64,000 nt of DNA from Marsupella aquatica (Eukaryota; Plantae; Marchantiophyta). Under the pieces are notes generated by a model. The model was not told the origin of the DNA and made no database searches. It was given only the letters and a program-made list of their open reading frames with translations. The DNA lies in NCBI GenBank assembly GCA_973895155.1, contig OZ316894.1:15058699-15122698 (forward strand), given 5' to 3'. Position numbers and translations under genes: made by a program. Of this stretch, positions 34,733 through 62,600 are shown one piece after another (the stretch's first letter is position 1; every line of letters starts with the position of its first letter).

Positions 34733-34909
34733 GCAACAGCTGGCGATTGGCAAGTATGAGGTTGAGGATGACTACCTGCACAGAGTCACATAACGGGAAT
34801 TGCTGCCTGGAATGATGTTTAGGATAGTTGGATATGCATGAAATTGATTGATACTTTGAATTTAGTGTGCTGATTCTCCCTGTTTGGTTGTGGGTGTTGT
34901 GCAGAAGCT

Positions 34910-38907: not shown

Positions 38908-39608
38908 TCAAGACGCCGGTACAAAGGCAAGCATTGTAATTCGAGGAAGTGAGTCTCCACAACTGAATATGAAGTTGTGTGGTATGGTTTTTGTTCTCAT
39001 GATGAAATTTGAATGTCTTGGGTGTGTAGCTTCATTTTGTTATTTGGGTTAGTGGTTCATAGTCTAGTCTTTAGAATGTTAGGGAATAAAAAGCTATGTT
39101 GTGGGTGGTCGGTGACCATATCTCTTTCAATATGTCACCAAATCTGGATCTGTAAAGAGCATTGGAAAGATCTGGTCACGTCGAGTAAAATCAATATAAA
39201 ACTCTATGAAAACAAAGGTGATTAAGAAAGATTCAACCTGATTAGTGTGATGGGTTAACTTGTGGCCAAAATTAACGGGTTCTGCTACGGTTTTGGGTTA
39301 ACTTAAGCTTGGCCACGGCTTAGTTTTGGGCCACGACTTAGTTTGGGCCACGACTTAGTTTTGGGCCATGGCTTAGCTTAGGTGAGCTTGGCCATGGCTT
39401 AGCTTAGGTCAGGACTACTTTAGTTTAGGCTTAACCCAAGTTTGGGTTAGACTGAACTCGGGTTAGCCTAAAATGGGGCCGGGGTTAGCATAGGTCATCT
39501 CGGGTTTGGGCTTAGCTTAGCCTAGGTTAGCGGGTAGCGGATTAGCGGGTAGCGGTTTAACCCAAGGCCATGGGTTAGCTCTACTCAGGTTAGCTATGTA
39601 ACTGCAAC

Positions 39609-40056
39609 CGGCTGCGGTTTGAGCTCAGATTTTGCCAGAGCATTGGAAACAGCAAGAATGTATCACTGGCAAAGTTAGAGCTGCAACCGACATCGTTTGG
39701 TATGCACTTTAGCATGCGCGATCTGCTATGTCTCCAATTTCGCGATTCTGAGCTCGGGGCGAAATTTCACTTCGAGTTAGAAGGGCAATCGGCTGCGGTT
39801 TGAGCTCAGATTTTGCCAGAGCATTGGAAACAGCAAGAATGTATCACTGGCAAAGTTAGAGCTGCAACCAACATCGTTTGGTATGCACTTTAGCATGCAC
39901 GATCTGCTACGTGTCCAGTTTCAAGATTCTGAGCTTGGGGCAAAATTTCACTTCGAGTTGGAAGGGCAATCGGCTGCGGTTTGAGCTCAGATTTGGGCAG
40001 AGTGTTGCAAACAGCGAGAGTGTATCACTGGCAAAGGTAGAGCTGCAACTGACATC
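39609..40056 (+). repeat. 181-bp tandem monomers (2.5 copies) in the LINE 5' UTR
   Basis: cggctgcggtttgagctcagatt begins at 39609, 39790 and 39971. Confidence 0.92.
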
Positions 40057-40118
40057 CTCTACTGCTCCCAATTTCTATTTGTCGTCTAAGAGTACATTCT
40101 AACAACAGTTTCAGCTTT

Positions 40119-40892
40119 GTGATGGCAACGGAGGAGATTGCCCATCTCAAGGCTTTGCTTGAGAAAATCTTAGTTGTGGCTGAAAACTCCGCAATTGAGA
40201 TTACCACACTCAGCAAGGAGGTGACAGAGCTAAAGAATGAGAATGTCAAGCAAAAGAGGTTGATTAGTGATCTTCGATCTCAAACTCAGGAGAATGGTAA
40301 GCAACTCTCATTGCTTGCATCGTGTTTTGGAGACATGGAGAAGAGTATGTGCCCAGAGAAATCAGTGATACATGAGGCTGTAGGGGAAATTGAGGAGAAG
40401 CTCAAAACCTTTGCACAGGCTGCAAAACAATCACATATGGAATTTGTCCAAGCCAAGGAGGAGGAGAGGAGAGCACTAGAGGAAGAACACAAGAACCAGC
40501 ATGCAAGAGTCAGCAACTGCAAAATATCAGGCCTTGTTGAGGAGGAGAAGGAAGACACCAAGAAGGTAGCAATTTCATTCTTCCAATCTCAGATGAAAGT
40601 GCATGACCCTATCATTTTGCAAGCATATAGGATTGGGCAAAAGAAGGGGGACCTTCCACGTCCAATCTTGGTGAAGTTTGCAGCTGAATCCGAGAAAGCT
40701 AGAGTGATGGCTAACAGGAGCATGCTTAAAGGGCTAAGGATTTGGTTGGATGATGATCTGACTCCCACACAAGTCCAAGCAAGGAAAATTGAGCTTGAGA
40801 AGGTGAGGGTAGCCAAAGACCAAGGATTGGTAGCCTACTTGCGCAATGGACAAGCTGTTGTTACCAATAAGAAGAGAGTTGTTTCTAAATGA
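40119..40892 (+). CDS. LINE ORF1 (coiled coil plus RRM/CTD-like)
   Basis: Coiled-coil N-terminus; NCKISGLVEE, AYRIGQKK..LPRPILVKF, IWLDDDLTP motifs. Confidence 0.85.
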   Translation: MMATEEIAHLKALLEKILVVAENSAIEITTLSKEVTELKNENVKQKRLISDLRSQTQENGKQLSLLASCFGDMEKSMCPEKSVIHEAVGEIEEKLKTFAQAAKQSHMEFVQAKEEERRALEEEHKNQHARVSNCKISGLVEEEKEDTKKVAISFFQSQMKVHDPIILQAYRIGQKKGDLPRPILVKFAAESEKARVMANRSMLKGLRIWLDDDLTPTQVQARKIELEKVRVAKDQGLVAYLRNGQAVVTNKKRVVSK

Positions 40893-43800
40893 TGGATCGG
40901 GACCTTGAGAGTCATGGCATGGAATGTTTCAGGACTTTCCATAGAAACAACAATTGGACGGGAACCTTTGTTTGAGAATTTTGACATCTTGCTTTTCACG
41001 GAGACTTGGGAATATGAGGGAAATGCTCTACCTAGCATTAAAGGCTTTACTTGCATACAATCCATCTTCAATGAGAAGAAGACCACACGGGGAAGAGGGT
41101 TTGGAGGCATTGTTGTCTACACCAAGAATCAACTTCAACACATCACCTCTATTGAACATGAAGATCCCAGCAAGCAGTTCATGGTGGTGAGACTTCATAC
41201 CAGAGGTACTCCATCATTTCTGATTGTCACCTACTTTGCTCCCCTTAATATGAATGTCTATAAGATGGGAATTGCTGATGCACATTATCCATTTCATAGG
41301 TTAATCCAAGTCATTCATGATATATCACCACTAGGGGAGACATGGATAGTGGGGGACTTTAATGCCAGGGTATCTAATGAACAATTTACTGAAAGTGAGG
41401 ACTTAGGAACTTTACCTTGGTCATCATGTAGTGAAGAGATACCTTGGGTGAGAGAGGCTCTTGACACCAGAACAAAGGACATGACACGTCACTTTTTGCA
41501 TTTGGGAGCTTCTTGTAATCTAAGAATATTGAATGGGCTTGAGAGATTTCCCCAATCATCTGGTTACACTTTTAGATCTAAACAAGGATGTAGTACCATT
41601 GACTACCTTCTTGCCTCACCTACCTCTGCCACTAGAGTGGTTGACTTTCAAATACTTGATCAACAACCAGAGTCTTCATACTTGCCTTTGTTGTTCCATC
41701 TTGACCTGACCACAATCCCAAACAAAGTGCATAGAAAGCCAGTACCCAAACCTCTGTTTCTAGACCCTGATAGAGAAATCATCTTCAAAGCCAACTTTGA
41801 ACATCTTCTCCATACCCTGGATGATCAGATTGAGCTCTCAGAAGTCATAGCACAAGCAGCAGCCTCTACTTTCTCCACCAAACCCCCTAGAAAGCAAAAC
41901 ATGAAGGCTTGGTTTGACGAGGATTGTGCTAGAGCAAGGATGCAAGCAAGATCACATTCAGGGGAAAAGAGACTTTTGGCATTCACTATGTACAAGAACT
42001 TCATCAAACACAAGAAGAGGTGCTTCTTGAAGAGTCATCAACAATCACTATGTGAGGAGTTCATCAAACATCCAAAACGTTTTTGGGAGAGAATGCAATC
42101 AGGCAAGACTACTCCCCCCTTGGATCACCAGGACCTGGTAACCTATGTCACATCCTTGTATTTCTTTCCAGATGCTAGTGGCATGCCTTTGCCCCTTGGG
42201 GACACCATTCAGTTTACAGAGAGGGAGGTGAAGGTGCATCTTTCCCACATGCAACATGGGAAAGCTAAATCTGTTGGGCCTGAACTTGGAGCTTCTTTTG
42301 TGGGGAGGACCCTCTTTACTAACAAACTTGGTGCATGAGCTGAATCAAGCAATGGCTTTAGGTTTACCTAAAGCTTGGATGACCAGAAGAGTGGTGCCTA
42401 TCTTCAAGGCAGGCAACAAGGACGATGTGCACAACTACAGAACCATCATGGTAGGCAATACTTTTGCTAAAGTTTTGGGAGGACTACTTGAAGCCAGATT
42501 AAGCTCTTGGTTGGAGAGTGAGATGAAAAGGGCACCTTCACAAGCAGGTTTTAGGAGAGAATTCAGCACTATAGATCACATTCTCTGCTTGAGGGTGTTG
42601 TGTGAAAAGGCCAAATCTCCACATAAACCATTATTTTGCTTGTTTGTGGACTTCTCCAAGGCCTTTGACAAAGTTTCCCGATCCAAGCTTTGGGATAGGA
42701 TGGTGGAGTTGGAAGTGCCTGAAGAGCTCAGGTTGGCTGTTTCTAAATTGTACCAAGAAGTGCGCATCAAACTTTCAAAGGAAACCTTTGAAGAAATCTG
42801 GAGCACTCTTGGGGTGATCCAAGGTTGTCCTCTCTCACCAACTCTCTTTGGCATCTTCATTGATCAGCTACACAACATTTTGGAGGAGCATGGTGGAGTT
42901 GGCACTCAATTGGGTAGGTTTGTCCTCCAACTTCTTATATTTGCAGATGATGTGGTCCTACTTGCTCATGCTCAAGAAGCTTTGCAAAGGCATCTCAATG
43001 CCTTGGAGGAGTTTTGTCAAGCAACAGGGATGGTAGTCAACCTCAAGAAGACCAAGTGTTTGGGCATTGGCACACGACAAAATCCAGAGCTCTACTTCCA
43101 AGGGAATCTGGTGGAATTTGTGAGGACCTACAAATACCTTGGGGTGGAGTTCTCTCAAAACTTGAGTTGGGCCTCATGTGTAAAATCTAGGGCTGCCAAT
43201 GGGTACAGAGCTTTTTATGCATTCATGAACAAATGCAAAAGAGCTGGTCTACACACTTGGAGTTAAGGAAACATCTCTTTGGAGCTTTGGTGAAACCAGT
43301 CATTCTTTATGGAGCACCAATTTGGGGAGCAGGTGTGTCTAAATCTGGGTGGCAACAGATTGAGGGGCTGCAAAAGCTATTTCTTGAGATGGAGCTTGGG
43401 ATCAAGTCACAAACCCCATATGCACTTACACTTGCAGAGGCAGGCTTGTTTCCTTTGGAGGTGGAGGCACTCTTCCACACACTCAAATACATCATGCGTG
43501 TAAGAGAGTTGGAGGAAAACAGATTTCCTTTTCATGCCTTGCGCTCATCTTCAGCTAAAGGGTGGTATGCAGATGTGTGCAGGTGGGCCCATGCTTGGGA
43601 TTTTCCTGAACATGAATGGCCAACACACCCAACCAAGCTAAGAGCAAAACTTGAGCAAAAGGCTTTGCACAAACTTTGGCATGAACCTAGCCCACGGCAG
43701 CAATACTACATGAGAGATGTGAACCCCATGAAGAAATATGGAGAACAAGAATACTTATCTAGCACTATCTTAGTACAACTTAGACAACTTATTGCTCAGT

Positions 43801-44105
43801 ATAGACTAAGCTCACACCACCTTGAAGTAGAACAAGGGAGATGGAAGGATATTGACAGGAAAAAGAGGGTTTGTCAACTATGTGATAGCTCTAGTATAGA
43901 GAATGAATATCATGTATTCATTGCTTGCAAGTTTTATGAGGGGGTTAGGATGGCATCTCAAATCTTGGTGAAAGATTTGTATGCATTGTTTGGTCTGCCC
44001 CCTCATCAACTTGGAAGATATATCTTTGCGGTGGATAGGGAAAGGAGAATAGGTTTGGAAAATCTTTCAGGGCTCTCTAGGTCCATAGTTTCTTTGAGGA
44101 CATAG
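40893..44105 (+). pseudogene. LINE ORF2 (APE endonuclease, RT, C-terminal CCHC) with two frameshifts
   Basis: LRVMAWNVSGL, FTETW, IVGDFNAR, STIDYLL, QAGFRR, FVDFSKAFDKV, QGCPLSP, LIFADD, YKYLGV, CQLC...ENEYHVFIAC. Frameshifts at ~42270 and ~43260. Confidence 0.93.
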
Positions 44106-45674
44106 TTGTCCTCTTCTGAGCAATCTCTTTTGGTTGCTCTTTTCTTTGATTGCATTGTACTTTACTTTTTGTGGCAGCTCCTTTGACTTTCATGGTCCCG
44201 GAGCTTATAATACATTACCATTACCATTACCATAACTTGGGTTAGTGCAGTAGTGTGTACCCCCTCTCGGTTGCGGGGCCATAACTTTCTTTGTATTTGA
44301 CCAAATTGGCTATAATTGACCTTGTTGGAAAGAGGAGCTCAAGCCGCTTCCAATGTTTGCTATCCATGCGGAAAATGGTTGAATGGAGAATTTGGGAGAG
44401 GAGGTGCAAGCTAACAAGAAATTGTGGAGGAGAGCCAAATCCGAAGTACATAGTTTTGAGATAGAAATAAAGTTGCGAGTTAGGGTCTAGTAGTTAGAGA
44501 TCGATAGTGGCGGCTCTATTAGGGCTGGGATGGGGCTCCAGCAGCGTAGCAGCTACCCATTTGGGCTCAGGTTGAGAGTATATAGAGTAGCCCCCTTAGT
44601 AGAAGCTAGCGGGGGAACTTCAGTTGTGTGATCTCACGTAGACTGAGCAACAGGGAGGAGCTCTATGCAAGGAAGGCTGGGCTTGGAAGCTGTGTGTTGG
44701 GGAGAGCTTGGTTGTGCTATTACTCAACGAGTAATGAGCCAAGTTTCACAACAATAGTTGGCCAGATTTGCAAGCTGGATTATGGCATCAACCTATTTAT
44801 TAAAAGTGTATTTTCTTTTGTTCACACATGAGTCTTGAAATATACACTTTCATGGCCCCAAATGTACACTTTTGTGTCTCTAAATGTACACTTTATAGGC
44901 CAAATCACATTAGTATTATATTAATAAATAATACATATTATATTATTTAATAATTCACGAAGAAGTGGAGGATAGGAACTTATAAAAATATTTCATCCCC
45001 ATTTAAGGACCATTGATACCATTGTCTGGGGGGAAATGTGGTCCTTGAGGAAGCACCGGGCCTATGGCTGCTAGTGTCAAGAGAGAACTTAAGTTAAAAT
45101 CATGATTACTATTCTAGACTGGGTAACAGACACCACAATGAATGGTTCTGTGGATGAAAGCACAACATCATAACCCTTTTCTCCATACCTTTGACTATTG
45201 CCTCATTGGCAACTACCTTTGGTCAAGTCACAAAACAAATATCTCCCAACGATAAAGAAACGGGAGATTCATCGGAGGGAGGTTTGTTGAGATCCATCTC
45301 AATACAAGATAAAAATTGTGCAAGCCCAATCCTGCCCGTAAACTACATAAGAGTCTACAAGTGGCTCTATTGAATTTAACACTGCAGTTGCAAATGCTTC
45401 TCCAAAGTAAAAAGTCATATGTTAATGCATTATCTCTTTTTGGAGTACATGAATTTTAATAAGGAAAAGATTAGGGAGAGGAAGAACAGGTACTGGTCTG
45501 GGCATTATTGTACTATCAAATATTCCACCCAACTAATATTCATTCTAATGACAAGATCTATAATCATTCAACAAAAAAGATCATTCATTCAAATAAATAC
45601 TATGCATTGAGTTAACTCTAAGTGTATACATGCACATGTTTATCTTAATAAGTTTATCTTCTTTTGAATGAAAA

Positions 45675-45945
45675 TACTATTTGAAGGTCCAACGCATACA
45701 AATTACCACTGATTGAGCTAAGCTCCAAGCCAGCGTGCATGCGTGGGTCTACTTCATAAGGGTTTCACCCAAAAGGAGCATATGATGTTAAGATATTGTT
45801 GAGCACTTTGCAACTCTTTAGGACTTAATAACCATCTCCTATCAAATGATAATACTTTTTGAAGGTCCAACTCATACAAAATATCTTTGGCCAAGCCAAA
45901 ACTCTAAGCAAGCGTGTATGAGTAGGTCTACTTCATAAGGATTAT
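45675..45945. repeat. Two diverged copies of an ~90-bp motif about 179 bp apart
   Basis: ttgaaggtccaac.catacaaa...aagc.agcgtg.atg.gt.ggtctacttcataagg at ~45680 and ~45859. Confidence 0.7.
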
Positions 45946-46169
45946 ATTCATAGAGGAGGTCATCAAGTCCAATGGATTCTTAAGGCTTCACAACTTAGTT
46001 GATGAAAGATGGGGAGTGAGGGGAGAGAACCCCTCTCCTCTTTATTTATAGTGCTCACACCTCAAGCACACGGATCAAGCATGACACACAGATGGAAGCC
46101 ATGTGTCACACATCCAAGGCAAGTAAGTGTGCTAGTACTATAGTTACGTGAGTGGAGCAACTATAGGCA

Positions 46170-46378
46170 GTACACTGTGGCATGCACACTGTAACATGCA
46201 TATTGTAGATCGTACACTGTAGCATGCACACTGTAGGTCTTGCACTGTAGCAACCACACTGTAGATCATACACTGTAGCATGCATACTGTAGACCGTGTA
46301 CTATAGCATGCACTCTATAGACCGTACACTGTAGCATGCACACTGTAGGTCGTGCACTGTAGCACGCACACTATACAC
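46170..46378. repeat. 14/28-bp minisatellite (CACTGTAG core)
   Basis: Alternating cacactgtagcatg / tacactgtagaccg-type units. Confidence 0.88.
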
Positions 46379-49300
46379 TACATATAACGCGAGAATTCAA
46401 ACTACTATCCTATACTACTAAGCTATACTTACGAGGAACTTACTAAACAAAGAATCTCCACGACACCGTGTGAACAAAATAACATCATTCCAAATAGATT
46501 ATAAAATATTTTTATACAATTATCTGCAAATTTACAATGAATACAAACATATTTCTAGTACTATCCAAGGGGCTTAACACGAGTCAATTAAATATCTAAA
46601 CCAAGTGCTCCATACAATGTGTATTTGAGCATGTAACATGGAGCCTTAAGGGATGAGTCCAAGGCCCGAATTCCTTTTTCAAGATTTTCATGATTTTTCC
46701 AAAAGTGCTTTAAAAAAACATATAAAAATGAAACATGTTTTGTGAACTTTGCTATTATAATTCTTTCAATGAAAATCTTGGGATATTTTCAACATCATTT
46801 TCACAATTACCAAAAACAACAAATCCATACTTAATTACAAACATAAAATTTACGGTCTTTGATCTGAGTTTGTGCAAACTCAAAATCTTAATTAGAATGC
46901 CACTATCCATTGTAGGTGTGCATCTAAGTCCACTAAATCTCTAAATACAATGCAACTCAACTAATCTAAGGCTTCTCTAACCTCCTCTCCACTTCTAGAA
47001 GATCCTTGCTTCAATCCGAGCTAGCTCAATAGTTACATCTTCTGTTGCACCCTCTACTCTGGTGCGCTTCACGTCCTCCCCACTCTCTTGATCCATACCA
47101 ATATTGAAATGTACATCGAGTTTGATTTGGGCAGCCACCCGGCTTCATGAAATCATGAAGCCGGGTTCTCACCTGAAAGAAGCTACCTGATCCTCCTAGC
47201 TCCCTCCAATTAGTTCCCCCAAGCTCGATAGTTCTCTTTGCTTCTGCTCCCAATCCACCCACCTTGGACTCATTTTTGACCCAGACCAGGCCTGGTCAAC
47301 CCTTAATCCTCCCTAGATCAATCTTGATTCCCGATCGGCCCTCCCCCGGTCCCTGATTAGTGAAACCCTTCCCCAATCCTAAACCCTCCCCCCCGATCTT
47401 TTACCGCTCCCCCTCCAATGTTTGATCATCCCCTTGATGCTCGACTGCCCTCCTCCGGTGCTCCATCCCCCTCTGATGGTTGATCGTTCCCCTGACGGTC
47501 GATTGTCCACCCTCCTCCAATCCCTAAATGGCCCCCCTTCCAATCCCCTTCCAATCCCCTTCCAATCCTTATCAATCCCATTCCAATCTCCCTTGCTCCC
47601 TCTCCCATCCTCCACTCGCTCCCCCTTCAATCCTTAGGTCTGCTCGATTGAGATCTAGCTCTCAAGCTCAATTTTTCACAAATTATCCCTGATCCTTTGT
47701 GGCTATCTCCCCTAATTGGAATCTGTCTCATTTAATCAGAGTCTACCACAGCTAATTCAAGCAGCAGTCAATCACAGTAGAAGCTCATTCAATAACCAAA
47801 TCTGAGAAATCAAAGTCCAACACTCAGGTGAAATCCAGCAATCAAAGCATCAACATCAAACCAGGAATTCAAAATTTCAGCTTCAGGATTTTGAAGGCGA
47901 CAGCAGAGATTAGCAGTCGTTCCCAGACCATAAATTAGGCCTGACCTCAATCGGCAGCTGATGACAGCACCTTGATGCGACTTGAGCTTAAGTGAGGGGC
48001 AATAGCCCTCTCCAGGCCGCAGCCTCCTTTGCCATAGCCAATTGGCTACCCTAGCCCTTTGTAGGTCATTGAGCCTGCAACAGAGTCTTTGCCCTTTGTA
48101 TTTTGTCACAACCAGTTTTGGGGTTCATGAATTCATGAAGCTTTTGGTTTCTCAGTTTCCCAGGTGGTAGCCCCTTCATGAATTCATGAAAGAGAATAAG
48201 GTATCTTAGGGAGAGAATCTCCAGAATAGCCAAAAGAAAGACTTCAAAAGTGAAAGAAAAGGGGATAAAGACAAACCACTCAATCTCAAGAAATGCAAAA
48301 AATATGGTGAAATAAAAGCAAAAAGTGCTCCAAATGCCAATATTCCAAAAAGCATATGGAAACAGTAGGTCAACAAGACAAACTCTCCAATCATGAGTCA
48401 TGGAAGTACGTATCTTGGTGGGCAAAAACATATGGGTTTTTAATGCCAATGTTTATCCTCATGAAACGTGGGAATGCAAACCTAAAAATGATTTATTTCT
48501 CCAAGTAAACTGGATTGCGTAGTCCAAACAATATTGTGAGATTAATAATTGAGCAATCTAGTAAAGGGAGGTATGGGGAAGGGAAAAGGCCCAAAGAAGC
48601 CCTAAGTTGCCCAACAAGCCAAAAAGTCAAAGGACTAGGATACCACCTAGTAGCCAAGAAGACTAATTAATAAAGTGTTGTGTCATAAAAAACTTTTGGA
48701 AATATAATTTTTTCAACTTTTTCCTTGACTTGTTCATCTATGTCATGAAAGGATTGGCTTAATTATTGAAAAATGATTTAAGCATTTCTTATTCATTTAA
48801 ATTAGAGAAAGGACCAATTAAGTTCAAATAGGCGTCCTCTATTCATGAAAACATGTTATTTCATTTGTTTCAAGTTAAAGGGTTTTTGCTCTTTTGTGTG
48901 TTTTGTCTACATTAAGTTCTTCTCACTCATTTGAGAGCACTAGCCTCCCCGGGCGTTAAGTTCTATCCCATGTGGTTGAGACTAGTGTTAATTTGGGTGT
49001 CCGACTCAAGGGTCTTCAAGATAGTGGACAGTTGAGAAAGCGGACTCATGAATTCATGAAGACCGATTGTAACAAGTTTCTAAAAACACTAAGTCCTGTC
49101 TCAAAACCAGATTGTTGTGCATTTTGGAAAGGTCAAGCGTTGCAACAAGCACCAAGGGGAGAGAGTGAATATGGTCGTCTGACATCTCTCAAATTCCAGG
49201 AAGGTGTAAGAGCGCTGACACAAGCGGGGACACAAGAAGACCTACTGAGGCTGCAAATAATTCCGGCAAGGAAAGGATCATCACAAGAAGGTCACCCGGG

Positions 49301-49968
49301 CACACTTGCATCATTTGGCTGAGATTGGAAGCCAATCAATATCAAGAAATTAACTTGAAGGGGAAGAATAAGAATTTGGAAGAGGTCCCCAAGAAGAGGT
49401 TGGGGGAGCCCAGTTGGGTCAATATGTTTGTGAAATTCAGATGTTGCCTAACAAATCAAACTCAGGCATGTTGAGAGCCAGGTTGAGAGTAAAAGAGGAG
49501 CCATTGAGTGATCTGATTTGGATCAGAACGGGTACATCTGGAAGCGTAGGTGGTGAATTTGTGGAGATATCATCTTCCATTGAAAAGTCTTCCTCAAAGA
49601 GTGAAGGGGCGCATGTTGGAGAGTCAAAAAGAGATCATATTTTATGAATTTGAAAATTTCCCAAGTCTAATAAATTATGGAGGTAATTTGATCATTTGTT
49701 AAAAATACAAATCATGTTTTGGTAAAAATTGCTAAAATGGCATAGTAAAATTATAGGTAGTAATTTTATCAAAAGTAAGTTGAGATCATTTTGTAATTAG
49801 GAGATGGTGAAAAAAGTGTGTCATTTTAATACTTTCAGTTTGTTTTATAATTTTGTCAAAAAACAGGTAGTATTTTTGGCCACTTTTTTGCCATTTTCTT
49901 TGTTTCTGCAATTTTTTTACGAGAGTGCTTAGAGTTTGGGCTTGTTACTCACCCTTTAAGGCTTCTTG

Positions 49969-50994
49969 TTATGTGCCCCTGTTTCCTTTCCTATCTACCC
50001 TATTGTCACGGTTGCAACGCCCTTTATTTTCAAGGAGTTGAAATTTGGTGGTGTTATTCCTAATGGCTATAATCTCCCGCAAAAAGTGTCTGGGATTTTC
50101 TCTATATGGACCTGAATAGTCCTTTCCTAAAAATGATTTAGCAAGTGAGTTGATAAGTGCATTGTCAAGTTCCTCCTCAGGACGTAAACTACATATACGA
50201 TGCTTTACATTCCAAGGGATCTCATTGTTGTTGAGGTCCAACACACTATGCGTAAAGTGTGACTTCCAAATTGTTGTTGCAGATTTCTTGCTAAGTTGAT
50301 CATAAGTAATCTCATTTTTTGCCTTGTCTCTCTTCATGTGCAAAAGAGACCACTTTGGAGAGTTGAGAAGAAGATAACATCGAATGTCACTTGCATGTGA
50401 AAGTTTCTCAAGACATGGCCAAAGAATTGCTAGAAGAAAATTATCTCCACAATTGGCATGCGTGTAGGGCACTGGAAATAATCTGGTCATGTCTGGGTTG
50501 GCAAATGCCTTAAGGGGGGAGTCATCCACAAGGAGAGTGTTGGTTTCATCATATAGATTTCCAAATGCATTCCATACCACCCAAAAATCCTTTAGTAGCA
50601 CATTTGCCTTTCCGTTTGTATTGTCACGCCTTTGAATGCCTATGTCAAAAGCTTCCACCTGTGTGAATACAAACTGGAGTTTTGACCTCTCCTCATCAGT
50701 GAACATCATGTTCAACATTTTCATTGTTTGCGGTATCCCAACACATGTCCAAATTGCAACGTCAAATCTGTCAAAAACCAACTTTAGAAACTCATGGAGC
50801 CCTGGTCGTTCTATATACATGCGACTAATACCATTTTTTCTATCCCAATGCACTCCACTTGAGGTGACAATATTCCTGGATGTGCCCTTGCTTTGGAATT
50901 CAACAGAATCCCAAAGTATTTTATTAAGGTCCAAAATCAGCAACTTCCGCTTGACGGGACCAGGTCTCGATTTTGCAAGTGCACCAAACACCAT
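49969..50994 (-). CDS. HAD-superfamily FCP1/NIF-like phosphatase-domain protein
   Basis: RKLLILDLNKILW, ERPGLHEFLKLVFDRFDVAIWT, LLKDFWVVW...YDETNTLLVDDSPLKAFANP. Motif I is DLNxxL rather than DxDxT. Confidence 0.85.
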   Translation of the reverse strand: MVFGALAKSRPGPVKRKLLILDLNKILWDSVEFQSKGTSRNIVTSSGVHWDRKNGISRMYIERPGLHEFLKLVFDRFDVAIWTCVGIPQTMKMLNMMFTDEERSKLQFVFTQVEAFDIGIQRRDNTNGKANVLLKDFWVVWNAFGNLYDETNTLLVDDSPLKAFANPDMTRLFPVPYTHANCGDNFLLAILWPCLEKLSHASDIRCYLLLNSPKWSLLHMKRDKAKNEITYDQLSKKSATTIWKSHFTHSVLDLNNNEIPWNVKHRICSLRPEEELDNALINSLAKSFLGKDYSGPYRENPRHFLREIIAIRNNTTKFQLLENKGRCNRDNRVDRKGNRGT

Positions 50995-51215
50995 TCTCAG
51001 AGAAAAGACCAAAAGTGAACTTTGGATTAGGATTGTGTCAGTCCAAAAATACAAGACAATGGCTAACAAAAAAGAAAATTAACCTATACCGTTTTTAGAA
51101 GCCTCACAATGTGTAGACGGATATGGAGACTTTAATTGGTGAGTGCATTCTGTGAGACCGAGAAGTATTTTAGATTGGTATGAATAAATAGAAAGTCAAA
51201 AGCTGAATTTCATTC

Positions 51216-54200
51216 CTAAATAAGAGATCTGTATTCATCAATAATCATGTCAGCACCAAGCTCCTGTTGGATTTCAAAACTGACATCTAAAGTACTTTGT
51301 TCTACCCAATAAGGTGAAGTCCGAACATGAGTAAACAACCCCAATTCTCTCCTCTTATACTCCTCCTTATTGAGAATTGAAGGAGCAGCATCCAATGATA
51401 TTTCTTGGCCTCTATTTGGCCCACTTTTCCATACGTAACATTGTAAGTCGCGTTCCAATGACCTTCATCCAGTTGATCCAACTCTATTCCCTTTCTTTTT
51501 TGAGAGCGGAAGGACAATAGGACTCCCCGTGTGTGAACACACGAACACCAATTTGTCATCTGAAGTTGAAAAGAGTGTGTCAGGACAAGTTGAAGCACCT
51601 GCCTGGTTGTCAGCAGCCGTTGATGCATTTTCTCCTGGATTGATGGGAATGTCAGGCAATCCGCCAGTCTCCCCCCAAGTCAATTCTTGAGTTTCAGCTT
51701 TATTTGAATCTCCAAGCCTCGTTGCACCTTCATTGATCAGATTGGTTGAAGAAAGATGATCAAACGTATCAACCCTTGCTCCTTCCATTTGCTCCATCTG
51801 TCCTCCCGGCGTTGTTGGATTGGGATCGTCCTTGTCCAAGTTATCATCAACTTGAACTTCATTGGGCCCCGAAGGGATGCCATCTAAACCAGATGAACGG
51901 TTTGGTGCAAGACCAATATCATCATCTACATCGTAAGGCTCACCTTGACCAACACGGTCATCTAAATTCTTGACATATGCCTCCTCTGATGCCTCTATGG
52001 CTTCAGCCACTTTGTCAGCAACATCTTTAGACTCAGAACCGGTTGATTCAACAGCGACAACTACAGCCGCAATAGTGGTAGCCCATTGTCAAGAATTTTC
52101 AGCAAGTGATTCACAATGGGCTTTAAGTGAGGGAACTCTCTTGCAAAGGTAGGAAGCAAAAGCTTCCACAAAATGCCTCTCAGACTAAGAGTCACAATAA
52201 ACAAAGTATTCCCTATCGCAAAAAAATGATGTCTTCATGACTTGGCCACCGGAGAAAAAATCTAGAACCAAATCTCCCAATTCTAACAAGGATTCAATAA
52301 TCCTTTGGATCATCCATGTGGGTTTGGCATGAGGATTAACCCACCCTTCGCGACTGCCAATTGTCTCAAATCGAGGGGCCATATTCATAATCTTGACGAC
52401 CTCTTCCGGGTCCAAAACCACTTTTAGGTTGTCGTTTTGTGTCCCCTCATCTGATTCCTTAGCCTTCCCCTTTCCCTTGTTGATCTTGCATACTTTGTAA
52501 TCAACATCCTTTGAAGTATACAAGAATTTTGGCTTTGGATAGTTGGGCTTGAAAACTTCATTCCAATTGACGTCTTCATCTTGAGAAATCCCCGCAAAGA
52601 TAACTTCTTCAATCCCCCCACCCCAACATGAGTCATGAGGGTGCGGTTGATCATCTTGGGAATAACTCCCATACTCAATGTGAATGGTCAAAGCTTTCTC
52701 TTGTCCCAATTTACAAAGGGCACCATGGACATTCAGTGCAAGTTGTCCAGGATGAATTGTTATCGTCACAACAATTGTGGGATTTTGTGGAAGCTCCACA
52801 ATGTATTCAAAGAGAACAAGAATCTCTGCTTCAATCCACTGTTTTGGCGGAAGCCGGCTAAAATCAACACTAGCAAGAGCGCAGGTCGGAGGAGCTTCTC
52901 GCAATGACTCTGGATCAATGGTCTTCATGAGATTGTTGCTAAAAAATGTAACCCATGGTAGGGTCCGAGAACGTGATCCTCTGCCAAATTTCTGGCAGAA
53001 TACATCATCTAGGCAGAATGCCAATGCCGTTGGCAAGATTGCGCTCTCCCGCGTATGGTTTGGCTTTAAAAGGTTGGCAAGATAGACCTCGCCAGCGGCT
53101 CTTCGACACCTGCTGAACTCTAAATCAATTGCTAGCGTAGGAAGAACCTCAAATACTTTCCCCCAATTAGTATTTGTCGGGAAATTCACCGCATCCTTGG
53201 TGCAATAGTAGTCTTCAATAAGGGACTTTAGTTTCCGCACGATCTTCACATCTTTGGCCAACTCCTCTATAGATGGCATGTTCTGATTTATTAGAGGCAT
53301 CTTTCTTTAGCAATACCTTTCCTGACTTCACCCGCGTTAGTATTCTTGTGATGTCTTGTTGTGAGATCAACTCACCATCAAAACAACAAAACATGGCAAT
53401 AGTAATTGCTTTTTCAGACTTCTCATTTCCTTCTACCCAGCTCCATCAAGAAGTTTCCCATCCAACCACAACTGGCATACCAAACTCCATGAATAAAAAA
53501 GAGCATTGTCCGCAAACAATAACCAGTAAACATTTCGACAATCTTTCCTTCCCATGGTCATTCTTGCAAGAGCCAACCAATCCTACAATTGCAAAGGAAA
53601 GTCTGTTAGTTCTCCATAACTCAATTGTTTGGAAGCACTCAGGTGCGGACTGAGACCATCCCAATCCAACACAGAACTAGACAGTATCAGTGGAAATATT
53701 CTATTGAATGTGCATGATTTAGTTTGGACTGGGACCATCCCAGTCCAAAACAAAACTAGACGATATCAGTGGAAATATTCTATTGAATGTGCATGATTTA
53801 GTTTGGATTGGGACCATCCCAGTCCAAAACAAAACTAGACGGTATCAGTGGAAAAATAATCTATTGAATGTGCATGAATCCATTTGGACTGGGACCATCC
53901 CAGTCCAACACAAAACTAGACGATATCAGTGGAAAAATTCTACTAAATGTGCATGTATCCATTTGGACTTGGACCATCTCAATCCAAACCAAACTTGAAG
54001 CTTTGTGGTCAAAGACTACCATCTCAATTGTAACCACATATGGAGAGTCTACGGTATTGTACCCATCAAGCAGTAACACTTCATACCTGAATTTTTGATT
54101 GTCTTGTGCGTTTGTTTTGTTGTCCCCATGTTTTGGCCGGCTAGGTCTTCCACATTCCACAAATTGTCGCCTAGCATGAACGACTGTATCTTTGAAGCAT

Positions 54201-55723
54201 GACTGAAACACCATTGTGCTATTGATAGCATTAGATCGCATTGAATGCTCAACTAATATTGACGATGGTGTTCAATGAGATAATATTCTTGACTTTTGAA
54301 ATTCCAGCTTTTTTGCCAATGCTGTTAGCTTGGCATCCTTGTTTGCCCATTCTCGAATCCATCTGGCTGCTCTGGCCGAATGTTGACCGCTAATGGCAAG
54401 GAACCTTGCCCTTTTTCACGGCTGCTACAAAGTCCCTCCTATCTGATTCTGTGTTGTCATACTGCATTAGGTTTCTATGTTTTGTAGTGTAAGGAATCAA
54501 GTCTACTATGTGTGATTCATGCCCCGGATTTCTTATCATGGAATTGGCCACCTCCTTTACATGGTTTGCATTCAACATTTTGTAACAGAGTCTTGCCGAT
54601 GCAGGAAAATACTCTCTACGGGAATAGAAAATATAGAATTGATCCCAAACGTATAATATTGCTCCATTTGTTGCAGTACCTCATTACCTTCTAAGACCTT
54701 CTTCTCCTCAGGAGCGTCCAACTGCTTGTCCACATCTTGTGAATGCATTGTCAGGTTTTTTGTAGTGTCATCCATGATGGCACTGTCAATTTTTTGTTTC
54801 TTCTTCTGTCTTGGCCTCTTTTCACTTGCACTTGGCTTCTCAACCGGACGTTTCTTCTCAACTTGCTTCTCAACTCGGCTTCTCGTACTCGGCTTCTCAA
54901 CTGGCTTCTCAACTCGACTTCTCAAACTCTGCTTCTCAACCGGCTTCTCAACTGGAAGTTTCTTCTCAACCGGAGGTTTCCTTTGGCTTTGTTTTCGTTT
55001 TCCCATTGCTCTTTGAGAGGTCGCTACTGTAGTTCCCACGGTCTCTGTTGTAGGTTCTGGAGCTTTCTCTGGCGCTTTCTCGGATACAGGGTTTGTATTC
55101 ACCGCTGAAAGCTTTCTTGCCTTGGACAAAGATTCTATCCACTACTTTGCTTTGACTAAATCAAACTTGGGAGCAAATGCAACATCCTTATCAATTAAAA
55201 CACCAGGCTCCTCCGACTCCAACGATAACAATCCAGCTTTCTCAAGTAAATTGCTTAACGTCCAGGTAGTTGGAAAAGAGAAATTGCCTTGGTGCTTCAT
55301 CATGTTGAGTTTCAAATATTGAAACCCATACATAATGTCAACTGGAAGCATACCAGTTACCCCGTCGACCAACTTCTTTGTGTCATAGATCTTTGGAAAA
55401 AATCCCATTGACAAAACGCTCAATTCCCCACTTGCGTGCCATTTGACATTGAATTCAAAGGAGTATGTCTTTGACAAAAGGTTAACTTTAACCCAACAGG
55501 ACCTATCGTGCATCTCTAGAATGACCGAATTCATCCCTCTCCCCCCAATGCCAACAGAGACCACAGGTCCACAAACAAAAGTCAGGCTATCATTTGCTCT
55601 GCACTTTAAGGTCAAAACAGGTTCAATTGTGCTTGATGGCACTTCATTATTAAGCGGGGTTCTTGAGAACTCAAGCCCCCATCGGAAGCCTAGGGATCTC
55701 TCATCTAGTAAGAATCCGTCCAA
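51216..55723 (-). pseudogene. Decayed multidomain gene: OB-fold-like, Lys-rich linker, ParB/Srx-like domain, DNA amino-(N4/N6)-methyltransferase-like domain, acidic tail
   Basis: ORFs 55142-55723 and 54572-55129 share a frame across one stop. ORFs 52185-53300, 51465-52010 and 51216-51458 share a frame across three stops. Motifs: FVCGPVVSV...ILEMHDRSCWVKVNL; LNANHVKEVANSM...FLAISGQHSARAA (~54370-54400); NPHAKPTWMIQRIIESLLELGDLVLDFFSGG...DREYFVY. Confidence 0.65.
53647..53995. repeat. ~79-bp tandem repeat (about 4.5 copies), each with dyad TTGGACTGGG-accat-CCCAGTCCAA, probably intronic
   Basis: Dyads at ~53647 (partial), 53724, 53803, 53884 and 53963. Confidence 0.9.
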
Positions 55724-55879
55724 GCAGTCGGTCGGTGCAATCGTGGTTTTGAAACCAACAAGATCGAGCCTGCATCATAAACATCATCCATGTTAGACTT
55801 AAAACTTGTTGGATTAGGATGGTCCTAGTCCAACTTGAGATGGTTTTAGACTTGCTCCTACAATCGGGATTCAATCTCC

Positions 55880-56310
55880 TGGATAGATTAGGATCCTCCA
55901 AGTCCAACTTTGGATTTGGATGGTCCGAGTCCAACTTTGGATTGGGATCATCCAAGTCCAACTTTGGATTGGGATGGTCCAAGTCCAACTTTGGATTGGG
56001 ATCATCCAAGTCCAACTTTGGATTGGGATGGTCTGAGTCCAACTTTGGATTGGGATCATCCGAGTCCATCTTTGGGTTGGGATCATTCGAGTCCAACTTT
56101 GGATTGGGATGGTCCGAGTCCAACTTTGGATTGGGATCATCCAAGTCCAACTTTGGATTGGGATGGTCTGAGTCCAACTTTGGATTGGGATCATCCGAGT
56201 CCATCTTTGGATTGGGATCATTCGAGTCCAACTTTGGATTGGGATGGTCCGAGTCCAACTTTGGATTGGGATCATCTGAGTCCAACTTTGGACTCGAATG
56301 GTCCCAGTCC
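55880..56310. repeat. 27-bp tandem array (ttggattgggat(ggt/cat)ccgagtccaact), open as DSDDPNPKL repeats on the minus strand
   Basis: About 15 highly similar units. Confidence 0.95.
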
Positions 56311-56554
56311 TCTAAGACTTAGGGAGGATAGGTGATGGATACTTACTAGGAATTTGTGATTGAAATTGTCTAGAGTCTTCGAGTGCCAGTTCTACACTGT
56401 CACTTATAGAGGAGAGGTAAAACTCCTCCGTTGCTTCCACGGTGGACAGCACAAGGACGCAATTTGCTTCCATCTTGCTGACCCGTGGCATCTTAGCAGG
56501 CATCTGATCTAGGTCAATGAAAAATAATGGAGGTGGAGGCGGAAGGCGGAGGCA

Positions 56555-56960
56555 GAAAGCGAGCAGAGAGTGGAGAGCAAGAGCGAGAGCAAGAGAGCGG
56601 AGAGTGAGAGCAGAGAGCAAGAGCGAGAGCAAGAGAGCGGAGAGCAAGAGCAAGAGAGCGGAGAGCGAGAGCAAGAGAGCGGAGAGCAAGAGCAAGAGAG
56701 CGGAGAGCGAGAGCAAGAGAGCGGAGAGCGAGAGCAAGAGAGCGGAGAGCAAGAGCAAGAGAACGGAGAGCAAGAGAGCGGATGGCGAGAGGAGAGCAAG
56801 AGAGCGAGGAGCAAAGCAAGAGGAGAGCGAGAGGAGGAGGAGAGCAAGAGCAAGAGAGCGGAGAGTGAGAGAGCAAACGGCGAGAGAAGAGCGAGAGAGC
56901 AAGGAGCAGAGAAAGAGGAGGAGGAGAGCGAGAGTGAGGAGCGGAAAGTGAGAGAATGAG
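56555..56960. repeat. GA-rich low-complexity repeat (gagcaagagagcggagagc), a CT-rich leader on the minus strand
   Basis: Purine-rich ~21-bp units. Confidence 0.9.
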
Positions 56961-57825
56961 AATGAGGTCCTGGTTGGACCTCTTCATCCCTTTACCCCCT
57001 CCTGCCTCACCCCGGCCTACGTACGATCGGTTGCCTCTGTACGGCCATCCTGCGTACGGCCTGCTCCTGCGCACAACCTTCCTGCCTTTCTGCATGCGGC
57101 CTGCTCCTGCATATGGCCCATTTCCCTCACCCTAAATATGGGCCTCCTTCCTTGATGTCCTGCCCAACAACCTTGCATGGTAGTCCCGGCGCAATTAGGC
57201 TCATGAAGATAAGGTGTGTCTGCAAGCTAAGGTGAAGGGGTACTCGACCCTTATCTTCATGCGATTTCTGGTTGAGCCGACTCAAGCGAAGGGTATAATG
57301 CGGGAGACGCCCACTTTGGAGCTCATTCTTGTTCTAGTTTCCCAAATCTAAGCTCCATGTAATCCGGAGTTTCTCTTAAAGTTTTATGTATTGAGCCACT
57401 TACCTTCAATGGGTCAGCTTAGCCAGCTTCTTGACTTTTGGAGTCCTCTCAGTTTATCTTTTACAGACATGTGTGGTTTAGGGTTCAGTAGGTTTTTTAC
57501 TCCCGAGATTTAGTAGCATATAGCTTGGATTTCAAGGTTCTAGGAAAGTTTTTACCAATCCACAAACAACAATGTATACCCCTTGGATGTGATATTCATC
57601 TTCTACCAGATCTTAATACTAAGGTGAGTATAAGGTTAATGCATTCAAATATAAGGTTCCATTATTTCATGAGACTGTATGTAGACATTAGGGTCTGCCT
57701 TAAGACCACGCAAACTTTAGGCTACACCATATAGGGAGATCCGTAAAATATGGAGTCTTCCTAAATTTGGATTTGTCTTAGCTTAAGATGTTTGAAGTTT
57801 ATCTCCCATGCATTACATGGGTTGG

Positions 57826-58672
57826 TCTAGGATGGTCCTAGTCCAAGTTTGGATTTGGATGGTCCGAGTCCAACTTTGCATTAGGATCATCCGAGTCCAA
57901 CTTTGCATTAGGATCATCTGAGTCCAACTTTGCATTGGGATCATCCGAGTCCAACTTTGCATTGGGATCACCCGAGTCCAATTTTGGATTGAGATCATCC
58001 GAGTCCAAGTTTGGACTTGGATGGTCCAAGTCCTAGTTTGGATTGGGATGGTCCGAGTCCAACTTTCCATTAGGATGGTCTGAGTCCAACTTTGGATTGG
58101 GATGGTCCGAGTCCTAGTTTGGACTTGGATGGTCCAAGTCCGAGTTTGGATTGGGATGGTCCGAGTCCAACTTTGGATTGGGATGGTCCGAGTCCAAGTT
58201 TGGACTTGGATGGTCCAAGTCCTAGTTTGGATTGGGATGGTCCAAGTCCTAGTTTGGATTGGGATGGTCCGAGTCCAAGTTTGGATTGGGTTGGCCCAAG
58301 TCCTAGTTTGGATTGGGATGGTCCGAGTCCTAGTTTGGATTGGGTTGGCCCAAGTCCTAGTTTAGACTTGGATGGTCCAATTCCAAGTTTGGATTGGGAT
58401 GGTACTAATCCAACTTTGGACTGGGATGGTCCCAGTCCAAATCTAGATTCGGAGGATCGTAGTCCAAATCCAGACTCAGAGGATTGCAGTCCAAATCCGG
58501 ACTCGGATGGTCCCAGTCCAAATCCAAAATCAGAGGATTGTAGTCCAAATCCAAACTTGGATGGTCCCGGTCCAAATCCGGACTCAGATGGTCCCAGTCC
58601 AAATCCAAAATTGGAGGATCGTAGTCCAAATCCAGACTTGGATGGTCCCGGTCCAAATCCAAACTTGGTTGG
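57826..58672. repeat. Second 27-bp tandem array of the same family (about 30 units, with sub-variants)
   Basis: ttggattgggatggtccgagtccaa units, drifting to agtccaaatccggactcggatgg variants. Confidence 0.93.
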
Positions 58673-59622: not shown

Positions 59623-62600
59623 TCACGACACCGGTGGTGGATCCTCAATGGACGCCCCCAATACTTCCTCCTCAGCCACTGCCGTTGGCCCGCCTACTGA
59701 CAGATTACCTGCCCTTGACCGAGTCAACTCTCCATCGGCCTGACTGGGTCCACCTTCGGCTTCGGCCTCGACACCGGCCTCGGTAATACCCACGGCTTCG
59801 GCTTCAGCCACTCCCACGGCTTCGGCCTCCCCTTCCCCTAGGGTAGTTGGATCCTTAGCCGTGACCCTGTCTGGGGTCGGTGCTGGGTCTACCTCCTTGA
59901 TCACCACGGCCTGTGAAGTCGTATTACTCCTTGACCCTGAAGGTTTCCGCTTCTTCTTCGTTGGTGGCTCGGCAGCTGGTCCCTTCCCCTTCCCACTTAC
60001 CTCCGGCACTGGTGCAGGTGGCGCGGCTTGTCCTTCGGCAATTACCACCCCTGGTAACTGGTTTGTCCCAACAGGAGATGGACCTGCTGCAGCTAAGCAT
60101 TTAAATACTGCGGCTTGTTTCTTCAGCCGCTCTGTTTGGTTGTCGGCCCGCCGCTGTAGGTTCTCCATCTTCCTCGTGATTTCCTCCAACTCCTCTTGGG
60201 TTTCATCCAGGTCCTTACGTGCCCCCTCCAGCTCGTTTTTGGCCTCCTCCTGCTCCCTGTGGGCTTCCTCCAATTCCTTCTTCAAGGTAGCCCTCTCCTC
60301 CTGGGTTGCTCTTAGCTCCTTGTCGAGCTCTGCAATGATGACAGACTCCATCTGGTTCATCTTGGCGTAAGTCTGTTCGAGCATCTCGTCCTTCTCCCTT
60401 AGGTCGGCCTTGAAGCTGGCCGTCAGGGACGCAAGCTCCTGCTGCAGTGCCATAATCCCTTGATAGGATTTCCCTAACTCGACCTCCTTCTGCTCAAGGG
60501 CTCCGCGGATTTTCTCGAGCTCCCCTTTCAACGCCCATTCCTTTCTTTGGGTCTCCGCCATGGCCCGGCTGTTGGCTGTTATGTGGGCCTCCTCTGTATT
60601 CTTTAGCTCTTGCTTCCACTTTTCCCTTTCTTTGATCGTGTCGGCCAACTCTTCCTGCGTCTGAGTCAGTTTATCCTTGATATTCTGATTATCAGCCTGC
60701 GCGGCGTCCAACTGCCCCTGCATGATGTTCAGCTCATGTCGTTTAATCCGCAGTTCATCTTGGGCTTTCTTGGCCGCCCTTAGATCTTCAATCTCGGCTT
60801 CCATCCTCCTAAGCCGCCGAATGACCTCGTCCTTCTTGCTTCTCTCTAAAGCCACCGCTTCTTCTAATTGGTGCTTCTCCAACTGCTCCCTATGGAAAAA
60901 GGGTCCTACCTCCAACTCCTCTCCAAAGATGCCGAGCGCAAGTTCCCCACACATCTCACCATACTCCATGGCTCTATTCTTAGCGTAGGTGGAGTAAGTA
61001 GAAGTGATCGGCATCGCCCATCGTGGCCTCTGCTCCCAAGCCGTCCTGCGGATCTCTTCAATCGTGGCTAGAGGTTTGCTTCCTTTTTCGGCTAGCCGCC
61101 TGATGTCCTCCGGCCAATCTCCTCCTGGTAAATCCTTTTCCTTAGCCAGGGCGGCCTCTTCCTCTTGCTTGATTCGCTCCTGAAATTCCTGCACCGTCTG
61201 TTTTATGCCGTCGAAGCTCGGGGGAGCAACATCTGGTGGGGGAGACTCAGGGCTACTCTGCTGGTTGGGGTCCCCTCGCACTACCCTTGGAAGTGTGGGG
61301 ACAAACCGGCCACAGGTCCTTACTCCTGGAACGTAATGGTCCGACCCATAGCCGGAATTATCATGGCTGCAGTCCTCCACTGCCTCCTCTACCTCTTGGA
61401 TTTCCGGCTTCTCCCTCTCCTCTTCCTCGGTAGGAGCTTCAGGCAATTCTGCCTCAGATTCGGAGCTTGAGGTTCCCACGTACATTCGAACACCTGGCTT
61501 GGATTCCGGCCTGATTCTCTCCTTGTCTCCAGCAAAGGGGTTTTCTCTTGTGAGCCGGTGTAGGCCTACCTCTGTAGTAGTGTCCTGCATTGTTGCCGTT
61601 GCCGTTGTTGTTGTTGCCGATGCCGATTTCTTTTCTTTCTCCAGTAGTTTCAGCAGACTCTGCATGCCTGGTTGCTGCATCGGCAAGTCTTCCTTCCTGG
61701 GCCTAAACACCTGCTCGATCGTAGGACTAACAGGTGGTTGAGGCTTCTCAGCCAACGGCCTCAGCGTTGGAGCTTCCTCGGGTGCCCTTACCTGCAGGGG
61801 AAGTACCGGGGCAAAAGTCTGACCTCTGGCATACCGGCACAACAGTGGCATGTGATAGCCAAGCCGCGACACGCTCCCCATGCCGATTACCTGCTGCTCC
61901 TCCTTTAAGATCTTCTTCAATTGGTTGAGGAGGTACCCGTTGTAGTCCCGGCTTGGGTCTGGCCTTTCTGCCAGATAGACCTGTGCTTTGCCGATCTCTG
62001 CCCTCGGCAAGTTACAATGCATGGTCACCCGCAAGAAGTCGATCATCTCTCCTATGTGCGGGTTGGTGCAGGTGTTCCGGAAGAAGCCATTCTTCGTTGA
62101 TGGCCCGGGGAACGACCGGAACTCCTTGTCAGGCAAGGTCTTCCTGGTATCAACTTTGGTCTTATTGCCCATCGGCAAGCCAAACACTTCGGCAATCACC
62201 TTGGGAGTAAGATAGAAATCCTTCCCATATATCCTCGTGCAATTGGTCTCGGGTTCCCATGACCCCACGAATTCTAATAGGTCTGACTCCGGTACCTCCG
62301 GCTTCAGCCATGGTAATCTTACAAAGGCCTCCAAGCCGGATCCGGCCATGAAGCCTTGGTACTTCTTGGTCTGCATGGCCGTAAAGCATGCATCCTCCTC
62401 CCGTGCAAAATGTAGTTGCACCTCCACCGGTAGGGTTGCCGCCCAGCCCTTCTAGGTGTCATCCCTGGTTGGAATGGCCTTGATGGGATCGACCTCCTCC
62501 TCTTCGGCTTCTCCCTGCCTCCTGCTCTGCTGCTCGGCTGGCTTCTTTGGTGCCGCCGACCTCGTTCTTTTTGCCGGGGTGGCTTCATCGTTGACGGCTC

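Follow-up and report, generated by a model that had tools for sequence, protein, structure and literature searches.

The window analysed here is a stretch of 64,000 nt from the liverwort Marsupella aquatica (contig OZ316894.1, 15,058,699 to 15,122,698), and all coordinates given below are positions within it. It is land-plant repeat DNA, with a 14-3-3 gene, copia-, LINE- and Gypsy-type sequence and a CACTA element carrying Transposase_21. A preliminary description, made from the letters alone, read the open reading frames (ORFs) of 51216..55723 as a decayed, mobile-element-borne fusion of a ParB-like domain with a DNA amino-methyltransferase. From their translations and from tiling with homologues by tblastn, these pieces are one spliced pseudogene on the minus strand, in which a ParB-type fold is fused to a methyltransferase-type fold. 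Its parts are as follows.

56347..56503, minus strand: candidate short first exon, proposed from an ATG and a GTAAGT donor context; in this copy its splice phase is shifted by one
54087..55769, minus strand: large coding exon A, with the N-terminal domain, a Lys-rich linker, the ParB/Srx-fold domain and the start of a helical region
55121..55759, minus strand: N-terminal beta-sandwich domain, then helices (match to profile A9)
54720..55120, minus strand: Lys-rich low-complexity linker, with approximate bounds (translation)
54270..54715, minus strand: ParB/Srx-fold domain with SGQHS at the Box II position (predicted structure of a homologue)
53583..54086, minus strand: GT-AG intron of 504 bp (splice context), with five palindrome copies inside at 79-81 bp spacing
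51216..53582, minus strand: coding exon B, with the helical region, the methyltransferase fold, an acidic linker and a conserved C-terminal domain of about 130 aa
52125..52967, minus strand: beta-class amino-methyltransferase fold; motif I is LDFFSGGQV, and the motif IV position holds DFSR

Four characteristic stretches are all read on the minus strand in the window translation: LNANHVKEVANSM (ORF 54390-54680), FLAISGQHSARAA (with SGQHS at 54377-54391), ASVDFSRLPP (with DFSR at 52854-52865) and NPHAKP...LDFFSGG (with LDFFSGGQV at 52239-52265).

Lesions and relatives of the gene

The copy in the window is a dead gene. It contains five in-frame stops, at 55142, 54272, 52185, 52089 and 51465, and about five frameshifts, near 54605, 54403, 54089, 53435 and 53281. 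Two of the stops and three of the frameshifts fall in exon A (as placed by P0013 and P0012 tblastn tiling, splice context and profile matches), and three stops and two frameshifts in exon B (tblastn with P0001 and P0003, and a match to profile A2 with iE 7e-229). At two of the frameshift sites, contigs of other copies from public runs differ from the window. The ORFs had originally been joined simply in frame, and this has to be amended, the 504-bp intron and the frameshifts standing between them. The relative L001 (36% identical to P0001) has an intron at the same position, and the exon-A ORFs of several relatives lose their match at its boundary. The full-length protein is estimated at about 1350 aa here.

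Three overlapping proteins of Calypogeia fissa tile the gene from 55582 to 51222 (tblastn): P0013 extends from the N-terminal domain up to where exon A ends, P0012 from the ParB domain to the helical region, and P0001 from the helical region to the C-terminus. The ORFs are therefore not unrelated fragments, the objection that the preliminary description had raised against its own reading. Five of the 190 proteins retrieved combine a ParB core with methyltransferase motif I in a single chain, four of these being Riccia gene models (P0034, P0114, P0156 and P0164) and the fifth, P0186, an ENA contig sequence. P0186 is an intact single ORF of 1009 aa, with SGQHS, DFAR and FDFFSGGIV. Since single chains of relatives hold both domains, the fusion is independent of the tiling of the window, and the clear result is that the gene does combine the two folds, as first proposed.

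The family is a many-copy, dispersed repeat gene with relatives in liverworts. The Calypogeia fissa relative is 41% identical over the methyltransferase ORF, and the Riccia sorocarpa relatives are more distant. Calypogeia has 17 family proteins on 12 scaffolds and Riccia has 17 gene models on 5 chromosomes, and many variant contigs cover the gene in all four public runs (their summed depths do not give copy numbers, and none was derived from them). This dispersal, together with the lesions, agrees with the idea of a decayed copy of a repeat-borne gene. That the locus instead stems from a domesticated host gene like Marchantia DN4MT1, as a duplicate that has decayed, is extremely improbable. 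The fold class is the same, and the named relatives are liverworts; but DN4MT1 keeps TSPPY, no ParB domain is reported for it in the available part of the account (bioRxiv 10.1101/2021.02.12.428880), and the present family is spread, largely in fragments, across many scaffolds and lies here among nested transposons. The link drawn earlier to the Marchantia N4-methylcytosine (4mC) methyltransferase thus holds for the fold class and for nothing closer.

A profile search of 1.84 billion representatives gave 221 clusters at E up to 0.001, of which the best 150 were listed; the aligned rows from these include fragments and close relatives, and so are not independent of each other. An alga is named in none of the 20 representatives looked up out of these 150 of 221. 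Pattern scans of GTDB genomes and of IMG/VR contigs, and tblastn of a phage collection, all of which reach close relatives only, found no relatives. No description of the land-plant family was found in the literature searched, the coverage of which was mostly without subscription papers. It is worth adding that fusions of ParB with a methyltransferase are common in phages (bioRxiv 10.1101/2025.10.10.680097) and that no carrier of the gene was identified, both of which might suggest that the unit is what is left of an endogenous DNA virus or virus-like element, and not of a cut-and-paste transposon. We regard this as highly improbable: the IMG/VR and phage searches gave no relative within their reach, the gene has spliceosomal introns, and the flanks scanned hold no viral hallmark gene.

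The predicted methyltransferase and ParB/Srx folds

The Pfam family PF01555 matches the ORF in the window with 22.6 bits (E 1.1e-4), under the curated cut-off of 26.7 bits, and the best score in the family, 25.9 bits for P0002, is also under it. A structure was predicted for the homologue P0003, using an alignment of 8 sequences; the core has a pLDDT mostly of 60-90, and the long linkers are below 50. In this model, residues 197-478 match the beta-class DNA amino-methyltransferases. The top 11 of 48,161 chains are all beta-class DNA methyltransferases (Z 11.8-14.7), with the MT-A70 proteins lower (Z 9). The best chain is CcrM, with Z 14.7 and a root-mean-square deviation (rmsd) of 4.1 over 200 aligned residues, and Foldseek finds M.MboIIA at E 7.2e-7. 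The predicted fold and the order of the motifs, with the catalytic position N-terminal to the motif that binds S-adenosylmethionine (SAM), are shared with CcrM, M.MboIIA, M.RsrI, M.PvuII, the bdelloid N4CMT and Marchantia DN4MT1. Unlike these, the liverwort family is without (D/N/S)PP(Y/F/W), has FSGG in motif I, and reaches only 8-16% identity in the structural alignments and sub-cut-off scores in Pfam.

The classic motif IV, (D/N/S)PP(Y/F/W), is present in none of the 51 rows that cover this position among the matches listed, and in none of 184 retrieved proteins. What stands there, placed putatively on the DPPY register, is DFxR in 28 of these 51 rows and DLTH in the Riccia subfamily, with the aspartate kept in 47 of the 51. 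Six relatives that are only 31-49% identical all keep the D, F and R of DFxR and the whole of LDFFSGGQV unchanged, and 40 of 282 columns are invariant in these six. Motif I has S-G-G in 51 of 68 rows of the matches listed, and reads FSGG, where M.RsrI has FxGxG; both LDFFSGGQV and the acidic residue that follows motif I are kept in 8 of 8 sequences. The preliminary description had supposed that the catalytic position was degenerate through decay. To judge from these alignments, the odd motif is a conserved trait of the family, and not damage peculiar to the copy in the window.

In CcrM and the bdelloid N4CMT, hydrogen bonds to the target amino group come from the acid or serine of motif IV and from the first proline, and a stacking contact of the tyrosine with the target base is modelled (PMC10406627). 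Because the whole family has a rebuilt motif IV, a working writer of 4mC or N6-methyladenine (6mA) is unlikely on the sequence evidence. Nevertheless, the intact protein might be an active amino-methyltransferase with a rebuilt motif (DFxR or DLTH), which writes 4mC, 6mA or another mark on the element's palindromes (described below), as proposed for algal accessory proteins. Such an enzyme would fit with the complete beta-class fold of the model, with the SAM-side motifs being the most conserved part of it, and with the kept aspartate and the invariant columns noted above. It would fit poorly with the loss of the Pro-Pro-aromatic part in all 51 rows, these being the residues that contact the target base in CcrM and N4CMT, and with the departure of motif I from the FxGxG of M.RsrI. 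We consider it a minor possibility.

For the ParB side, the model is of the homologue P0018, with an alignment of 22 sequences. The top 6 of 48,161 chains belong to the ParB/Srx superfamily: PadC (Z 8.6, rmsd 3.3, 98 aligned), KorB (Z 8.1), SerK (7.5), Pnob8 ParB-N (7.1), Srx (6.6) and SbnI (6.5). Foldseek ranks Noc, ParB and sulfiredoxin first, with a best E of only 1.7e-3. Among 22 members there was no match to the Pfam family ParBc at E up to 10, and a weak match to DndB in two (best E 0.031). The NCBIfam ParB and DGQHR models gave no match, nor did profiles of the domain against PDB sequences. Of the two Pfam families that the preliminary description had in mind, PF01555 is therefore reached only below its cut-off and ParBc not at all; it is by the predicted structures of homologues, Foldseek included, that both the beta-class and the ParB/Srx folds are recognised.

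The arginine of the Box II motif GxxR is replaced by serine. The window has SGQHS, and serine is found in all 19 proteins that match the pattern (of 39 examined), and likewise in P0114, P0156, P0164, P0184 and P0186; the sole non-serine relative seen is a truncated protein that ends SGQHL, with leucine at this position. Mutation of this arginine to alanine abolishes binding of nucleoside triphosphate (NTP) in the ParB folds tested (bioRxiv 10.1101/2025.10.10.680097). The GQH sequence, which had been taken to mark a ParB nucleotide-binding domain, goes with a predicted ParB/Srx fold, but with serine at Box II it gives no support for a working nucleotide-binding ParB. Further residues of the domain are invariant, including an Arg and a SNxxN segment, and there is an insertion of about 25 residues ahead of Box II. 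In comparison with the ParB-CTPase/Srx proteins (PadC, KorB, Noc, SerK, sulfiredoxin) and the phage fusions of ParB with an N6/N4 methyltransferase, the predicted fold is shared, and the repeated palindromes recall ParB and parS (bioRxiv 10.1101/2025.10.10.680097); the serine and the insertion set the liverwort family apart, and the searches gave no close relative among prokaryotes or phages. It is very unlikely that the domain is a working NTP-gated clamp, which would load at the palindromes as ParB does at parS, and spread along the element. The predicted fold, the parS-like palindrome lattice and the invariant Arg and SNxxN segment speak for it; however, every full-length example seen has serine for the arginine that the tested folds need, and no helix-turn-helix (HTH) was identified.

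The N-terminal segment, described earlier as resembling an OB-fold, is better matched by PH/PTB/FERM-F3-like sandwiches (Z 5-6.2 for the PH-like matches of the predicted model). Among the tied matches is the SANTA domain of M18BP1 (9r6h; Z 5.8, rmsd 4.1, 102 aligned). The N-terminal domains of 7 members gave no Pfam or PDB sequence match, SANTA included, the ESM Atlas gave no usable match for this domain, and the SANTA-like identity is a lead only, suggested by the model. The Lys-rich linker is predicted to be disordered, with pLDDT <50 in the corresponding part of the P0018 model. Directly behind the ParB domain, the homologue model has a confident helical region; a two-copy model of the ParB-helical module, made without an alignment, scored 0.01.

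Palindromes, the phosphatase neighbour and a proposed role

The tandem repeats around the gene are made up of one 25-bp palindrome, the two arms of which have 11 bp each, around a spacer of 3 bp. Allowing up to 6 mismatches, there are 52 copies, all within 51022-58656 and none elsewhere in the window, against 0-2 copies in each of 20 shuffles. On average the arms pair at 8.5 of 11 positions. In addition to the copies within the 504-bp intron, the following features are found around the gene.

57822..58656, no strand: palindrome array 2, 28 copies scored, 27-bp period
55809..56312, no strand: palindrome array 1, close upstream of exon A, with 18 copies at a spacing that is mostly 27 bp
51815..51839, no strand: single palindrome copy inside the acidic-linker coding sequence
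51022..51046, no strand: single palindrome copy, 28 bp upstream of the start of the HAD gene
49972..50994, minus strand: FCP1/NIF-type HAD phosphatase ORF of 341 aa with a DLN motif, directly downstream of the gene

Array 1 is probably inside a first intron, and the palindromes may be kept mainly in introns. A possible small intron at 51000-51092, before the HAD start, would contain the copy at 51022. The CG of one palindrome arm reads CA or TG at 16 of the 36 array positions examined, a pattern that would fit decay through 5-methylcytosine (5mC) laid down by the host.

The HAD ORF matches PF03031 (E 4.7e-14) and UBLCP1 (E 3.2e-9). In the Riccia gene models P0079, P0130 and P0162, a methyltransferase-like part is followed by a NIF domain, and P0182 is a partial match to this pairing. 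The pairing of methyltransferase and HAD is conserved as far as these gene models go; the Riccia models may be merged neighbours, and not true fusions. The HAD gene, the introns, the palindromes and the published algal genes discussed below are all additions to what was seen in the preliminary description.

We propose that the window holds a broken copy of a plant repeat gene, the intact protein of which is an accessory factor that binds palindromes on its own, probably transposable, element and does not methylate; on balance we consider this probable. Both enzyme motifs are replaced while the folds are conserved, which argues for a role in binding or sensing. Each two-fold symmetric palindrome would be bound by a dimer of the intact protein, the contact being made by the helical region that follows the ParB domain, by the methyltransferase fold, or by both. 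The protein would in this way coat the 27-bp arrays, the array in the intron and the site before the HAD gene, with the effect of regulating the genes of its element or of shielding them from silencing by the host. The methyltransferase fold would still bind SAM or S-adenosylhomocysteine (SAH), as a DNA-binding or sensing module and not as a methyl writer. Conservation of motif I, NPxxK and the acidic positions makes binding of SAM or SAH likely; writing is not likely, since the residues that hold the flipped base, the prolines and the aromatic one, are replaced. The 52-copy palindrome offers a concrete candidate for the binding site, and makes the idea of self-binding directly testable.

Several observations weigh against this proposal. 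The register of motif IV comes from strand order and sequence, and not from a residue-level structural alignment, and the invariant D, F and R at this position could mark a catalytic site that is rebuilt and not dead. Both structure models are of homologues and use shallow alignments (8 and 22 sequences), and the Z-scores of the ParB domain are modest, at 6.5-8.6. The helical region gave no HTH or other known DNA-binding fold, its match lists being filled by the methyltransferase domain. The palindromes have been seen in this window only, and L001, the only DNA of a relative examined (1802 bp), is without an array. As regards the carrier, no transposase or pair of terminal repeats could be tied to the unit, six-frame scans of the flanks were empty, and a Gypsy element near 58701 truncates the unit on the right. 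As a carrier, the CACTA element at 22368-38907 was considered and rejected: it has matching 18-bp termini of its own, and a contig of run X2 departs from the window at 38907.

A more far-reaching version, which we think distinctly unlikely, is that giant liverwort elements have their own ParB-parS-like system, in which a ParB-fold protein that also has a SAM-sensing pseudo-methyltransferase and a SANTA-like domain would load on the arrays of 25-bp palindromes and, together with the FCP1-type phosphatase, would remodel the chromatin locally or steer the element to centromeric chromatin. If true, a prokaryotic partition module would have been repurposed as the anti-silencing or targeting device of a plant transposon.

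The closest published counterparts of the accessory factor proposed here are algal. An accessory protein of the giant transposon Sola1-1_Ec32 of Ectocarpus, proposed to bind and modify its own element, has the same pairing of a ParB-like domain with an N4C/N6A methyltransferase (PMC12477816), in 1104 aa as compared with about 1350 aa here and 1009 aa in P0186. The comparison is by domain description and not by sequence. The liverwort family is from land plants, and has both catalytic motifs replaced; in addition it has a PH-like domain at the N-terminus and a conserved one at the C-terminus, and an FCP1-type phosphatase is linked to it. In Bostrychia, the Plavaka genes PAG2 and PAG3 likewise combine a ParB-like gene beside tandem inverted-repeat arrays, a PF01555 domain and giant DNA transposons; there, one gene joins ParB to a 2-oxoglutarate (2OG) oxygenase and another joins the methylase to a SET domain, whereas the liverwort gene has ParB and methyltransferase in one chain and no EnSpm transposase tied to it (bioRxiv 10.1101/2025.02.11.637652). 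In chlorophytes, a ParB-HTH is fused to a different group of methyltransferases, and land plants have few N6A methyltransferases (Iyer et al., PMC4738411).

To judge from its motifs, the liverwort gene resembles the algal accessory genes in architecture, and would not pass as an active beta-class methyltransferase or as a nucleotide-binding ParB. The algal transposon counterparts were known; what is new is a land-plant, doubly rebuilt ParB-methyltransferase accessory gene, for which a candidate binding site can be named and next to which a phosphatase gene is conserved; the architecture is thereby extended from algal giant transposons to land plants. The idea that the algal proteins bind and mark their own elements is a proposal, which comes without a test in the parts of the accounts examined. 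It follows for annotation that liverwort genes labelled 'DNA methylase N-4/N-6', such as Riccia R1sor_008484, are probably repeat cargo, and not further writers of 4mC like DN4MT1.

The probable carrier element and its surroundings

To the left of the HAD gene, two features bear on the extent of the carrier.

46631..49970, no strand: 3.3-kb insertion with short inverted ends, which interrupts this copy just past the HAD gene and is absent from other copies
38908..46630, no strand: probable left part of the carrier, consisting of 38908-39603 and 44248-46630 with a LINE insertion between them at 39604-44247

Joints from 46630/46631 to 49971/49973 skip the 3.3-kb insertion in three of the four public runs. 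The insertion is non-coding and its inverted ends are imperfect. Its near-exact match to contigs of three runs makes it a probable recent, non-autonomous DNA element. The LINE is skipped by a joint from 39603 to 44248, seen in one contig of one of the four runs with a 21-letter side, and the carrier unit may reach left to about 38908. No Pfam match at E <0.01 was found in six frames of 38908..46630, and the window holds no matching inverted terminus for the unit. A Helitron carrier was considered from terminal motifs and is not supported.

The segments 38908-39603 and 44248-44870 are rich in GGGTTAG-like motifs, and nowhere in the unit is the summed contig depth higher; they may be the subterminal region of the carrier. 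The stretch 45013-46468 is skipped in some copies. Within it lies a 14/28-bp tandem repeat (46172-46375), after which the minus strand shows a TATA-like box and a CT-rich stretch; there is no Pfam match, and this combination, lying within 45012-46469, suggests a further decayed gene of the unit. The sequence CTAGTGTCAAGA is present both at the right end of the CACTA element (38902) and at 45072.

The LINE at 39604-44247 is apparently young, with ORF1, endonuclease and reverse transcriptase, 2.5 copies of a 181-bp repeat at the 5' end and a (CCATTA)n tail; an inverted fragment at 17141-18276 is 98% identical to it. The CACTA element at 22368-38907 is 16.5 kb long, and its 3-bp flanks differ (GTA and TCA), giving no clean target-site duplication. 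Its ORFs encode Transposase_21, DUF4218, DUF4216, a PHD-finger protein (27853-28548), a double-BRCT protein (29132-29995) and a weak F-box-like match (30130-30705). In the Gypsy-type element on the other side, a coiled-coil ORF of 942 aa, with no confident Pfam family, lies on the minus strand at 59623-62451 and adjoins the integrase ORF. Finally, an uninterrupted 14-3-3 ORF in one frame is found among the transposons at 15379-16221 (PF00244, E 1.8e-106), which is possibly an intronless gene or a retrocopy.

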